Shown here: piece after piece, positions 9,425 to 22,847 of the stretch
Layout of the letters: the number at the start of each line of letters is the position of its first letter
How positions within the stretch are numbered: the first letter of the stretch is position 1
NCBI GenBank assembly: GCA_963807605.1
Contig: CAWECG010000003.1
Coordinates: 864,001 to 928,000 of the forward strand
Direction: 5' to 3'
Origin: Candidatus Bathyarchaeota archaeon
GTDB taxonomy: Archaea; Thermoproteota; Bathyarchaeia; 40CM-2-53-6; RBG-13-38-9
DNA: 64,000 bases
Notes under the pieces: model-generated
The model's input: only the letters and a program-made list of their open reading frames with translations
What the model was told of the DNA's origin: nothing
Databases searched by the model: none
Program-made: the position numbers and the translations under genes

Positions 9425-9685
9425 CTACGCTTCTTGGGGTTGTTCTGAGGGAGTTTTTACACCGTAATACTTGTCAGTAAATTTGCAGTAGACATCGACC
9501 ATACTTGATGGTGGTATAACAGGAAATTCTTCCTTGATTTTGCAGGATCCGCATTGAACAAGCGCTTTGTCAGATCCCTTCTTCATAATAACCTTCACAG
9601 ATTCTTCACCGCATGCTGGACATGTAAAGATCGTTGGAAGTTTCTTCTTTACAATTTTAACTACTCTTCGTTTCCTTCGACCCAT
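9425..9685 (-). CDS. elf1: Transcription elongation factor Elf1
   Basis: MGRRKRR...LPTIFTCPACG...CGSC...VDVYCKFTD. Confidence 0.92.
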   Translation of the reverse strand: MGRRKRRVVKIVKKKLPTIFTCPACGEESVKVIMKKGSDKALVQCGSCKIKEEFPVIPPSSMVDVYCKFTDKYYGVKTPSEQPQEA

Positions 9686-9709: not shown

Positions 9710-10507
9710 TCACATTCTGCCTCTTCCAATGGCCAAGTTCTTGCCTGTCCCGCCCCGTCTGTGTTTAATCACTTCTGCTATTATGCTTGTGGCAATCTCC
9801 GCTGGCGTCTCAGCACCTATATCGAGTCCGATAGGTGCGTAGACCCGTTTAAGGCTATCTTCAGGTATACCCTCTTTCATCAACGTGTTAAATGCCATCT
9901 CTACCCTGTTCTTGCTTCCGACCATTCCTATGTAAGTTGCTTCTGAATTGATGACTTCTCGTAGGGCAGGTTCATCGTACTGATGCCTAGTCACTATAAC
10001 TATGTACGTCTGTGGAGTGATTTTAAGCCCGGCAACTCCTGCATCTACGGGTTTGGCTACTACGGTTTCGGCATCCGGGAACTCTTCTTTCTTGGCAAAG
10101 GGGTCAAGCACAACGACTTTAAAGTCTACCAATTTACCAAGAGTCGATAACGCTATTGCGATGTGACCGCTTCCGATGATTAAAAACACTGGTTTTGGCT
10201 GGAGTACCTCGATAGATAATTCAAGCTTACCTCCACATCTCATGCCCACCCCACCTTTCTCTTCCTCCTCCAAGGCATAGTCTACGATTCGAGACTTTGC
10301 TTCCTTTAGTGCTTCGAGAGCCGATGTCACTACTGCTGCTTCAACACAACCGCCACCGATGGTTCCGTAGATCGTTTGATCGTTCATGATAATCATCTTT
10401 GTGCCAACGCCCCTCGGAGTAGAACCCTCAGCTCTGATTATGCTAGCGACAGCAAACGTCTCTCCACTTTGCAGAAGTTCTGTAATCTTTTGGTATATGT
10501 CCAGCAA
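9710..10507 (-). CDS. xdhC: XdhC/CoxI family molybdoenzyme accessory factor
   Basis: GSTPR, GTIGGGCVE, CGG, YIGMVGS and PIGLDIGAETPAEIA. Confidence 0.92.
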   Translation of the reverse strand: MLDIYQKITELLQSGETFAVASIIRAEGSTPRGVGTKMIIMNDQTIYGTIGGGCVEAAVVTSALEALKEAKSRIVDYALEEEEKGGVGMRCGGKLELSIEVLQPKPVFLIIGSGHIAIALSTLGKLVDFKVVVLDPFAKKEEFPDAETVVAKPVDAGVAGLKITPQTYIVIVTRHQYDEPALREVINSEATYIGMVGSKNRVEMAFNTLMKEGIPEDSLKRVYAPIGLDIGAETPAEIATSIIAEVIKHRRGGTGKNLAIGRGRM

Positions 10508-10658: not shown

Positions 10659-11536
10659 ATGCGTTTGACGACAGAACTTTTGAGATTGGATAATCCAGAT
10701 GGAGCTATCGAGCGTATCGTCAGCTTTCTCAGAGACTATGTTAAGGGGGCCTCGGCTGATGGTTTTGTTATTGGTATGTCTGGAGGACTCGACTCAAGCG
10801 TTACAGCTGCTCTCTGTTCAAGAGCTCTCAACGACCGTAACAAGATCCTTGGTTTGTCTATGGCTGAGGAGGAAACCTACAATGAAAAGAATATAGCTGA
10901 TGCCGAACGTGTAGCACACATCTTTAACATACAATTCAAGAAGGTCGACATAACTTCAATTATCAAAGACTTTCATAAGAACATGAAACTCTTCGATCCG
11001 AGGGATCGAATTGCTAATGGTAATGTTAAAGCGAGGATCCGCGCGGTAACTCTCTTCTACCACTCTAATGTTCTCAATCGCCTCGTCATCGGAACTACCG
11101 ATAAGAGTGAAATGATGCTCGGATAGGATAAGTCCTTCATGAATTTATCCCCGAAGATTTCACAAAGTTTGGCGACGGGGCATGCGACATAGAGCCTCTG
11201 GCAGATCTCTTTAAGACAACCGTTAGACAACTTGCAACCACCTTGGGAGTTCCTACAGAAATAGTAGCGAAGCGGCCATCACCCGATCTTTGGCCGGATC
11301 AACAAGCAAGCCAAGAACTAGGAGCGGATTATGACGTACTTGATCTTGTACTATGGGGAATTGAGCACTGGTGGTCGATAGACAAGATCGCAAGTGAACT
11401 ACAGCTCCCCGAGAAGTTTGTTAAGAATGTAGTGGAGAAGTGGAAATTAGCGGAGCATAAGAGGCGCACACCACTTATCCCCAAACTCTTCTTTAGAACT
11501 GTGGGTCATGATTTCCGTCTACCCTACATGCCTTAG
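10659..11536 (+). CDS. nadE: NH3-dependent NAD+ synthetase, two exons (10659-11124 and 11157-11536), 281 aa after splicing
   Basis: GMSGGLDS, GNVKARIR, GTTDKSE; spliced LGYFTKFGDGACDIEPLADLFKT; PSPDLWPDQ and EHKR. Confidence 0.93.
11125..11156 (+). other. 32-nt bulge-helix-bulge (archaeal endonuclease type) intron in nadE mRNA
   Basis: Central helix TCGG(11119-22)/CCGA(11151-54), 3-nt bulges ATA and AGA, 8-bp intron stem GGATAAGT/ATTTATCC. Removal restores the frame and the conserved motif. Confidence 0.9.
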
Positions 11537-11674: not shown

Positions 11675-12502
11675 ATGAAGCAAATCAAGGTAGGCCTTGC
11701 CCAGACTTCCATCAAAAATGGTGATAAGTCTCACAACCTCCAAGTAATGAGGAGGACTTTAGACGAGGCCAGAAAGAAAGAAGCTAACTTACTTATCTTT
11801 CCTGAGTTATCTCTCACAGGATATGTTTGTCGCGACTTTTTCTATGAGCTCGCGGAGACTATTGATGGACCCTCTATAAAACTTGTATGCCAATTTACAA
11901 GAGAGAATGGATTGACAACGATTTTTGGAATGCCTTTGGAAGAGAATGTCAAAGGCGTAATTTACAATTCGTCGGTCATGATCGATGAAGACGGTGATGT
12001 TGTTAGCTACAACAAGTTGTATTTGCCTACCCACTCGGTCTTCGATGAAAAGAGATATTTCCGCTCTGGCAACGAGACAAAATGTTTTCAAACCAAGAAA
12101 TGCAGGATTGGGCTGACAATTTGTTATGATGTTTATTTCCCAGAGATATACCGGATCCTCGCACTTGAGGGAGCTGAGCTCGTGACTTGCATCTCTGCAT
12201 CTCCTTCTACACGTCAAGAATATTTCCAAACTTTGACTAAAGCTAGGGCAATTGAGAATGGAGTTTTTCTTGCTTTCGTCAATCGTGTTGGAATTGAGGA
12301 TGGACTACAGTTTTGGGGAGGAAGCAACGTCGTGAGCCCAAACGGTGACATTCTGGCGAAGGCCCGATATTATGAAGAGGACTTAACCTTCGTTACATTA
12401 GACTTGGAGGATCTAAGGAGAGTTAGACCGTTTGTCCCAACCATTAAGGACCTCAGAATGGAGATCTTGGACAGATTGGTACTGCGAGCCCACGAGATAT
12501 GA
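11675..12502 (+). CDS. Carbon-nitrogen hydrolase (nitrilase family)
   Basis: E-K-C triad: FPEL, YNKLYLP, ICYDVYFPE. Confidence 0.92.
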   Translation: MKQIKVGLAQTSIKNGDKSHNLQVMRRTLDEARKKEANLLIFPELSLTGYVCRDFFYELAETIDGPSIKLVCQFTRENGLTTIFGMPLEENVKGVIYNSSVMIDEDGDVVSYNKLYLPTHSVFDEKRYFRSGNETKCFQTKKCRIGLTICYDVYFPEIYRILALEGAELVTCISASPSTRQEYFQTLTKARAIENGVFLAFVNRVGIEDGLQFWGGSNVVSPNGDILAKARYYEEDLTFVTLDLEDLRRVRPFVPTIKDLRMEILDRLVLRAHEI

Positions 12503-22708: not shown

Positions 22709-22730
22709 GCATTCGGGATAGTTCCTCAGG

Positions 22731-22847
22731 CGCCGGGGAGGGGACTTGAACCCCTGCTCTCCTAGTGGAGAACCGGATGTGTTGACTTTTCGTTCTCGAG
22801 TCCGGCGCATTGGCCCACTTTATGTTTTGCCACTCTGCCACCCCGGC
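22731..22847 (-). tRNA. tRNA-Ser(CGA) with two introns (D-loop ~22810-22825; anticodon 37/38 at 22779-22794)
   Basis: Acceptor GCCGGGG/CCCCGGC, anticodon stem CCGGA/TCCGG, long variable arm, GTTCAAGT T-loop. Confidence 0.88.

Follow-up and report, generated by a model that had tools for sequence, protein, structure and literature searches.

A probable tRNA-type intron in the NAD synthetase gene nadE of Bathyarchaeia

Introduction

How can a gene that runs into a stop codon in the middle of a conserved motif, and resumes further on in another frame, still supply a complete enzyme? The question is raised by nadE, which encodes nicotinamide adenine dinucleotide (NAD) synthetase, in a 64,000-nt stretch of contig CAWECG010000003.1 (positions 864,001 to 928,000, forward strand) from a Candidatus Bathyarchaeota archaeon. 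This whole stretch is called the window here, and its first letter is position 1. A preliminary description, made from the letters of the window, proposed that nadE contains an intron of the kind known from archaeal tRNA genes, which the splicing endonuclease EndA would cut out at a motif of the bulge-helix-bulge (BHB) type. Comparative, structural and genomic evidence now makes it very probable that positions 11125-11156 are a real spliced, endonuclease-type (tRNA-type) intron in the nadE pre-mRNA.

The genome to which the window belongs comprises 2.65 Mb in 5 contigs, with 47% G+C and an estimated completeness of 94%. Within this 94% complete sequence no second nadE is found, and the interrupted copy is the sole nadE. 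Searches of the 64-kb window with Rfam at the gathering threshold and with ARAGORN at default settings return no match.

The interrupted nadE gene

The exon-1 frame opens with ATG at 10659 and is translated through 155 codons ending in ...TTDKSEMMLG, after which it reaches TAG at 11124-11126. Reading resumes 35 bases on, in another frame, from 11159 with FTKFGDGACDIEPLADLFKT, and ends at the stop codon 11534-11536. The preliminary description placed the break after SEMMLG in the same way, and every one of its coordinates matches the sequence. The Pfam profile NAD_synthase is divided between the two parts into positions 2-136 and 138-242, with a single profile position missing and no duplication. 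Excision of 11125-11156 joins T 11124 to AT 11157-11158, which forms the Tyr codon TAT and gives a product of 155 + 1 + 125 = 281 amino acids (aa). In this spliced form, profile positions 136, 137 and 138 are continuous, and the exons jointly cover positions 2-242. The continuous profile and the rebuilt Tyr bear out the original proposal that the EndA rule, by which each bulge is cut behind its second base, takes out exactly 32 nt and restores both the GYFTK motif and a 281-aa open reading frame.

The reconstructed protein has the hallmarks of NadE. SGGLDSS, corresponding to the PP-loop SGGxDS, lies in exon 1, while the G-Y-FTKFGDG block (GYxTKxGDG) straddles the junction, and orthologues align to this NadE from residue 1. 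The predicted spliced-junction sequence is CTCGGATAYTTYAC, with the RNA consensus CUCGGAUAYUUYAC. Since A is the last base of both bulges, an alternative cut at 11126-11157, one base rightward at both ends, yields the identical mRNA. Without splicing, the gene contains a stop and a frameshift and would be annotated as a pseudogene, as had been foreseen.

Fold and conservation of the insert

Left unconstrained, the segment 11100-11170 adopts as its minimum-energy fold the structure that had been drawn for it (z = -3.2 at -17.9 kcal/mol); of 200 shuffled sequences, not one is as stable. Each bulge sits 3' of its own central-helix strand, giving a 4-bp helix and one 3-nt bulge per strand, as a BHB requires. 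Pre-tRNA introns at position 37/38 likewise have each bulge 3' of its helix strand. The strict hBHBh' motif, on which homotetrameric or homodimeric EndA acts, is absent, with C 11118 unable to pair with U 11158 and no outer helix abutting the 3' bulge. The outer exon pairing GUGAAA/UUUCAC can form in 75% of cases in intron-bearing genes versus 77% at the same codons of intronless homologues, and is probably a by-product of the codons with no functional part. Since this outer helix is unselected and is separated by 6 nt from the central one, the motif is classed as a relaxed BHB, as the preliminary description had partly suspected, with a true bulge at the 5' site and the 3' site at the open end of the central helix. 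Of the structure first drawn, the inner stem holds up in the fold, and the central helix and the bulges hold up both there and in 15 of 15 aligned sequences, whereas the outer helix, although present in the window, does not survive as a selected feature.

Covariation also bears on the pairing. In an alignment of 15 distinct sequences, the central helix and the inner stem together make up 12 pairs, and 95.6% of their cells are paired; with partners slid by 1-3 columns the figure falls to 31-53%. For the inner stem alone the value is 93%. Three pairs of the inner stem have changes on both sides, and one pair occurs as G-C, A-U, U-A and C-G. Ten cells are changed on both sides, a number matched by none of 500 shuffles, and the covariation score is 0.216 compared with 0.116 in shuffles and at most 0.07 in the slid controls.

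The coding sequence around the insert also appears constrained. The six bases CTCGGA, which hold the exon strand of the central helix, are found in 22/22 intron-bearing genes versus 3/30 intronless homologues, and these helix bases are frozen at synonymous sites. Exon 1 has a median ratio of nonsynonymous to synonymous substitution (dN/dS) of 0.13 and exon 2 one of 0.10, with most pairs saturated at synonymous sites, and no stop codon occurs within either exon in 14 genomes. Both exons are thus under strong purifying selection, which points to their translation.

Together, these features suggest the following pathway. In the transcript, exon UCGG would pair with intron CCGA, and the hairpin GGAUAAGU...AUUUAUCC would stack on one side of this helix. 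AUA would thereby stand out as a genuine bulge of 3 nt, and AGA would form a stretch of 3 nt where the helix is open. An (alpha-beta)2 EndA would then cut between bases two and three of each triplet, and RtcB would ligate ...CUCGGAU to AUUUCAC..., creating the UAU Tyr codon. The spliced mRNA would encode the 281-aa NAD synthetase with its GYFTKFGDG motif. Table 1 lists the parts of the gene and of the fold, together with the other interrupted genes described below.

Table 1. Positions of nadE, the parts of its predicted intron, and introns predicted in five further genes. Positions without a prefix refer to the window; C1, C3 and C4 are contigs of the same genome.
Feature	Location	Strand	Basis or description
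nadE, interrupted	10659-11536	+	Open reading frame translations and Pfam NAD_synthase (PF02540)
nadE exon 1	10659-11124	+	155 codons (MRLTTELL...SEMMLG) and T 11124, base 1 of the split Tyr codon; Pfam profile 2-136, E 6e-37
Predicted intron, 32 nt	11125-11156	+	Cut rule after second base of each bulge; fold; relatives
nadE exon 2	11157-11536	+	AT of the Tyr codon, then FTKFGDG...LPYMP (125 codons) and stop; Pfam profile 138-242, E 3e-29
Central helix, 5' strand UCGG	11119-11122	+	In exon 1, codons CTC GGA; pairs with 11151-11154 in 15/15 sequences
5' splice-site bulge AUA	11123-11125	+	Predicted cut 11124/11125; invariant in 15/15 sequences
Intron hairpin	11126-11150	+	8-bp stem GGAUAAGU/AUUUAUCC, 9-nt loop 11134-11142; part of minimum-energy fold
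Inner stem strands (DNA)	GGATAAGT 11126-11133 with ATTTATCC 11143-11150	+	8 bp, one of them G-U
Central helix, 3' strand CCGA	11151-11154	+	Intron side; CCGG in three relatives, giving a U-G pair
3' splice-site triplet AGA	11155-11157	+	Predicted cut 11156/11157; ARA in 15/15 sequences
Outer pairing GUGAAA/UUUCAC	11107-11112 with 11158-11163	+	In minimum-energy fold; 6 nt from central helix
EF-2 predicted intron	C1:210688-210718	+	31 nt; junction QIR|NIGIIAHVDHGKT; motif rebuilt IRNIGIIAHVDHGKT
aIF5B predicted intron	Central helix start C1 451354 (reverse-strand coordinates)	-	37 nt; VVLGH|VDHGKT; GHVDHGKT rebuilt
argF (ornithine carbamoyltransferase) predicted intron	Central helix start C1 511344 (reverse-strand coordinates)	-	31 nt; KPSTR|TRASFE; STRTRASFE rebuilt
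RNase HII predicted intron	C4:128220-128245	+	26 nt; GVDEAG|RGPLLGP; DEAGRGPLLGP rebuilt
cbf5 predicted intron	C3:1143681-1143699 (locus L199:282-300), outside window		19 nt; CCCU/GGGG helix, AGA bulges; GHGGTL|DPMVTG

Distribution among relatives

Orthologous nadE genes are found in 9 of 16 genomes of the GTDB family, and all nine are interrupted at the same codon. The same interruption occurs in 12 JGI metagenome contigs and in one contig binned as Zixiibacteriota, bringing the total to 22 loci, 15 of them distinct. The exon-1 frame halts immediately at TAG or TAA in all intron-bearing sequences. At 30, 31, 32 or 34 nt, the inserts of the relatives represent every length class modulo 3 and leave exon 2 in frame 0, +1 or +2, so no fixed frameshift could read through every one. 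The cut rule, by comparison, restores an in-frame junction for every insert length from 30 to 34 nt. The rebuilt Tyr codon is T|AT or T|AC throughout, its third base varying synonymously, and 30 of 30 intronless homologues have TAT or TAC at this position. Across the clade, only precise removal of the insert would give protein from all members.

In a maximum-likelihood tree, 18 distinct intron-bearing NadE proteins, from Bathyarchaeia genomes and metagenomes, form one clade with 100/99 support, and the adjacent NadE clade, from another family of the same order, is intronless. Homologues whose C-terminal half is at most 59% identical are all uninterrupted. Among 5.8 billion protein clusters there is no full-length (at least 220 aa) relative of exon 2 above 61% identity, so the intron clade is known in interrupted form only; neither a product of a spliced transcript nor an intronless allele of the clade is seen in these clusters. 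A single gain, placed on the stem of this Bathyarchaeia NadE clade, most likely gave rise to the nadE intron. Alignment across relatives, which had been put forward as a check for presence, absence and covarying stems, therefore shows a clade-wide intron with compensated stems.

The contig binned as Candidatus Zixiibacteriota (JBARPA010000406.1, 2,673 nt; locus L041) carries a Bathyarchaeia-type nadE with a 31-nt intron. It is most likely mis-binned, because the tree groups its nadE with a Bathyarchaeia genome (G003).

Sequencing records extend the evidence beyond assembled genomes. Insert-spanning DNA contigs come from two unrelated studies, with four DNA runs examined; they place the insert in the DNA and have no bearing on expression. 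A 2,716-nt soil contig covers the entire nadE with 15 substitutions and no gaps, and marsh contigs also span the insert, one of them carrying it 1 nt shorter. None of the DNA contigs examined is without the insert, and these independent contigs speak against the assembly artefact that had been named as a possible refutation.

Splicing enzymes

The genome encodes two EndA paralogues, at L001:1453-2019 on the minus strand and L002:1261-1788 on the plus strand, and one RtcB. For the 188-aa EndA (alpha), a gapless alignment to catalytic subunits from Sulfolobus tokodaii, Aeropyrum pernix and Pyrobaculum aerophilum takes in both the Crenarchaea-specific loop (GKPVGIPKPKPDQ) and the catalytic triad Tyr/His/Lys. 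The 175-aa paralogue (beta) matches endonuclease folds more weakly and has no His, as expected of a structural subunit, which it would represent. The genome thus encodes a two-subunit EndA of crenarchaeal type with the broad-specificity loop, along with RtcB, the enzymes that such splicing would call for.

Published work on these enzymes fits a relaxed motif. The EndA types that cut non-canonical motifs are the two-subunit and epsilon2 ones, according to one study (PMC5829648) and to a second report (PMC12397907), and crenarchaeal EndA recognises relaxed motifs outside the tRNA context (PMC2738675). The proposed dependence of nadE on EndA/RtcB-type splicing is the one reading that agrees with both the comparative data and the enzyme set. 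From sequence, we infer the cleavage, the ligation and the translation of spliced nadE mRNA.

Other interrupted genes in the genome

The cut rule used for nadE also repairs five further genes, and the resulting six are a lower bound (Table 1). The inserts in the genes for EF-2, aIF5B, argF and RNase HII measure 26-37 nt, with a 4-bp helix and A-rich bulges of 3 nt. In cbf5, exon 1 contains the DKCLD domain, and exon 2 has TruB_N from profile position 17, followed by TruB_C_2 and PUA. Its intron splits the catalytic Asp codon between letters one and two (GGTL|DP). The crenarchaeal cbf5 intron occupies the identical codon position, and there complementary DNA (cDNA) has confirmed that the cut falls between bulge bases two and three (PMC2738675). 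The cbf5 intron thus serves as an internal positive control for the cut rule applied to nadE. Because of the shared codon position, the Bathyarchaeia and crenarchaeal cbf5 introns may be of common origin.

A scan of the genome for BHB motifs at other frameshifted genes, which the preliminary description had recommended, succeeded in part: it added these five genes, and it gave no unbiased count. In a homology-free census, comprising three scans that combine motif geometry, open frames and codon scores, the true cut rule performs no better than decoys (for example, 746 hits versus 724-784). Since true and decoy rules are equal in hits, no genome-wide intron number follows from them. Adding the bulge pattern A-N-A / A-N-R cuts the list to 14, of which six are real by motif or Pfam; this filter was learned from the known cases and does not provide an unbiased count. 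On balance, the nadE intron probably belongs to a lineage-wide set that Bathyarchaeia carry in their mRNAs, with at least six protein genes affected in this genome. Three of the six interrupted genes, those for EF-2, aIF5B and cbf5, serve translation or ribosome biogenesis.

These companion genes also bear on regulation. The suggestion that splicing gates NAD synthesis finds no support, as equivalent introns occur in cbf5, EF-2, aIF5B, argF and RNase HII, and no evidence was found that removal of the nadE intron is regulated. Because several unrelated housekeeping genes are similarly interrupted, the nadE intron is more likely a tolerated insertion that is constitutively removed than a regulator.

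Several further observations concern the window and the rest of the genome. A tRNA-like gene on the minus strand at window positions 22729-22847 has the acceptor GCCGGGG.../...CCCCGGC, a long variable arm and apparently more than one intron. Only when its intron option is set does ARAGORN report this gene, as tRNA-Asn; default ARAGORN and Rfam miss it. Genome-wide tRNA calls number only about 31, many of them dubious, and the genome is rich in tRNA introns. The terminal 5-7 kb of C3 (C3:1151000-1157264) and C4 (C4:725000-732006) have 65-70% G+C, compared with 47% for the genome, and are probably chimeric joins or foreign DNA.

On the same strand, 138 nt 3' of nadE, window positions 11675-12502 encode a 275-aa carbon-nitrogen hydrolase (Pfam CN_hydrolase, E 7e-60). 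Glutamine-dependent NAD synthetases built of two subunits exist, and this protein might supply the one-domain NadE with a separate glutaminase partner. Upstream, on the minus strand, lie an Elf1-type zinc-ribbon transcription elongation factor (86 aa; 9425-9685) and an XdhC/CoxI-family protein (9710-10507), both ordinary.

Alternative explanations

The strongest competitor, though still very unlikely, keeps precise removal of the insert and assigns it elsewhere: another nuclease and ligase pair would act on the RNA, or the DNA itself would be excised in some cells. In its favour, the link between EndA and nadE RNA is drawn from sequence, and the 3' site has no canonical closing helix. Nevertheless, the 4-bp helix, the 3-nt bulges and the cut after the second base reproduce the exact geometry of EndA substrates, and this geometry is found in six genes, among them cbf5 at the classic crenarchaeal site. 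Self-splicing introns are far larger than 32 nt, which leaves the insert much too small to be one, and excision at the DNA level is contradicted by the lack of any DNA contig without the insert.

Slighter still is the chance that ribosomes bypass the insert without any RNA cutting, leaving at GGA and skipping the gap. Phage T4 gene 60 is the example of such ribosome hopping, and the GGA codon, the immediate TAG and the stable hairpin that follows do resemble it. The resemblance ends at the 3' side of the gap, where most clade members have CCGAAGAC or CCGAAAAC and no GGA landing codon. Where GGA is present (CCGGAGAC), resumption would give G-D-F, not the invariant G-Y-F. The matched take-off and landing codons of programmed bypass are thus not found, and the Tyr codon, absent from unspliced RNA, arises only through RNA joining. 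Furthermore, bypass has no need of the conserved pairing between exon UCGG and CCGA, and the bulge rule is obeyed by the five other interrupted genes, none of which has a GGA-stop take-off site.

Equally improbable is a split NadE, in which two separate polypeptides assemble and the insert is an intergenic spacer. Archaea do contain split enzymes, and purifying selection on both halves agrees with this arrangement. Against it, in 15 of 17 sequences the exon-2 frame is devoid of ATG, GTG and TTG from its upstream stop until 8 codons beyond the junction. The window's first start codon in this frame, TTG at 11243, comes 28 codons in, after FTKFGDG. The break would also delete exactly one invariant residue in the middle of a motif, and a spacer needs neither a conserved helix with exon bases nor frozen synonymous sites.

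Least probable of all is a pseudogene or a sequencing or assembly error, with NAD amidation lost or performed by another enzyme: the literal reading does contain a stop and a frameshift, and some family members have a second, distant NadE-type gene, but 22 loci from numerous assemblies carry the insert, as do DNA contigs of two other studies, both halves are open with dN/dS of about 0.1 at saturated synonymous sites, and this genome has no other nadE.

Splicing of the nadE transcript by EndA and RtcB accordingly remains the favoured explanation, and the following points weigh against it. The 3' cut site has no conserved closing helix and so departs from the canonical form. Cleavage there would lean on the known tolerance of crenarchaeal-type EndA and not on this organism's own enzyme. 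The covariation comes from related sequences, with only three pairs doubly changed. Lastly, 20 runs from 12 studies are listed with the stretch or part of it, and none of them is on record as RNA.

Comparison with known systems

The closest precedent is the crenarchaeal cbf5 intron of Desulfurococcales and Sulfolobales (Watanabe 2002; Yoshinari 2006; Yokobori 2009; PMC2738675). Like it, the nadE insert is short, lies inside an open reading frame and splits a codon in a conserved motif. In cbf5, too, the BHB is often relaxed, the cut falls between bulge bases two and three, and the interior varies while the borders are conserved across the clade; its splicing is attributed to a hetero-tetrameric EndA. 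Moreover, the cbf5 gene of this very genome bears an intron at the crenarchaeal codon position. Several distinctions separate the two. The nadE host is a metabolic enzyme of a Bathyarchaeia lineage rather than an RNA-modification enzyme, and its intron is known from sequence whereas that of cbf5 is known from cDNA. In addition, cbf5 introns are described from one gene family, while this single genome holds at least six interrupted protein genes, nadE among them. By every feature of cbf5-type introns that can be tested computationally, the nadE insert appears to belong with them; it departs only from the strict canonical motif, in that no outer helix adjoins it.

Non-canonical archaeal tRNA introns with a relaxed BHB (bulge-helix-loop), cut by (alpha-beta)2 or epsilon2 EndA (PMC5829648, PMC12397907), share the central helix, the 3-nt bulge, the inner stem and a site without a flanking helix. 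The EndA class with the Crenarchaea-specific loop, associated with such introns, is present in this genome. Unlike these tRNA introns, the nadE substrate is an mRNA without a tRNA body, and single-base accuracy is required to keep the frame.

Two mRNA systems offer more distant parallels. The BHB intron in the 5' untranslated region (UTR) of Haloferax volcanii HVO_1309 is likewise in an mRNA and is an EndA substrate in vivo and in vitro (Schwarz 2020, PMC7714728). Unlike the nadE intron, it lies in an untranslated leader, interrupts no protein and belongs to a euryarchaeon. HAC1/XBP1 splicing, performed by IRE1 with tRNA ligase, or with RtcB in animals, likewise removes a small structured intron and shifts the frame (PMC13149111; PMC8718801). 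Here, in contrast, the nuclease is IRE1 and not EndA, and the reaction is stress-regulated; no homology is implied.

In the searchable literature, cbf5 and the 5'-UTR intron of HVO_1309 are the only archaeal mRNA cases (PMC7714728), and a 2025 paper on EndA enzymes cites the cbf5 work alone (PMC12397907). Neither a nadE intron nor mRNA introns of Bathyarchaeia are reported in the searchable full-text literature, a scope outside which most subscription journals fall. These searches agree with the earlier remark that no intron in an NAD synthetase gene was known.

Significance

The nadE case would extend cbf5-type mRNA introns to a metabolic gene, after more than 20 years in which the searchable literature has listed cbf5 alone among protein-gene families. 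It also has practical consequences for annotation. Pipelines will label such genes as pseudogenes or split genes, and metabolic reconstructions of Bathyarchaeia would wrongly miss NAD synthesis, arginine synthesis and other pathways.

The locus also offers material for further study. The interrupted genes supply natural, minimal mRNA substrates with relaxed motifs for examining the single-base accuracy of EndA outside tRNA. With the intron present in one clade and absent from its sister clade, nadE presents a dated case of intron gain as well.

If Bathyarchaeia do carry such a lineage-wide set, EndA and RtcB would splice mRNA in a prokaryote as a general system that is essential to it, with small introns repeatedly gained at new coding sites. 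The splicing of mRNA by protein enzymes would then be routine in a widespread, uncultured class of archaea.

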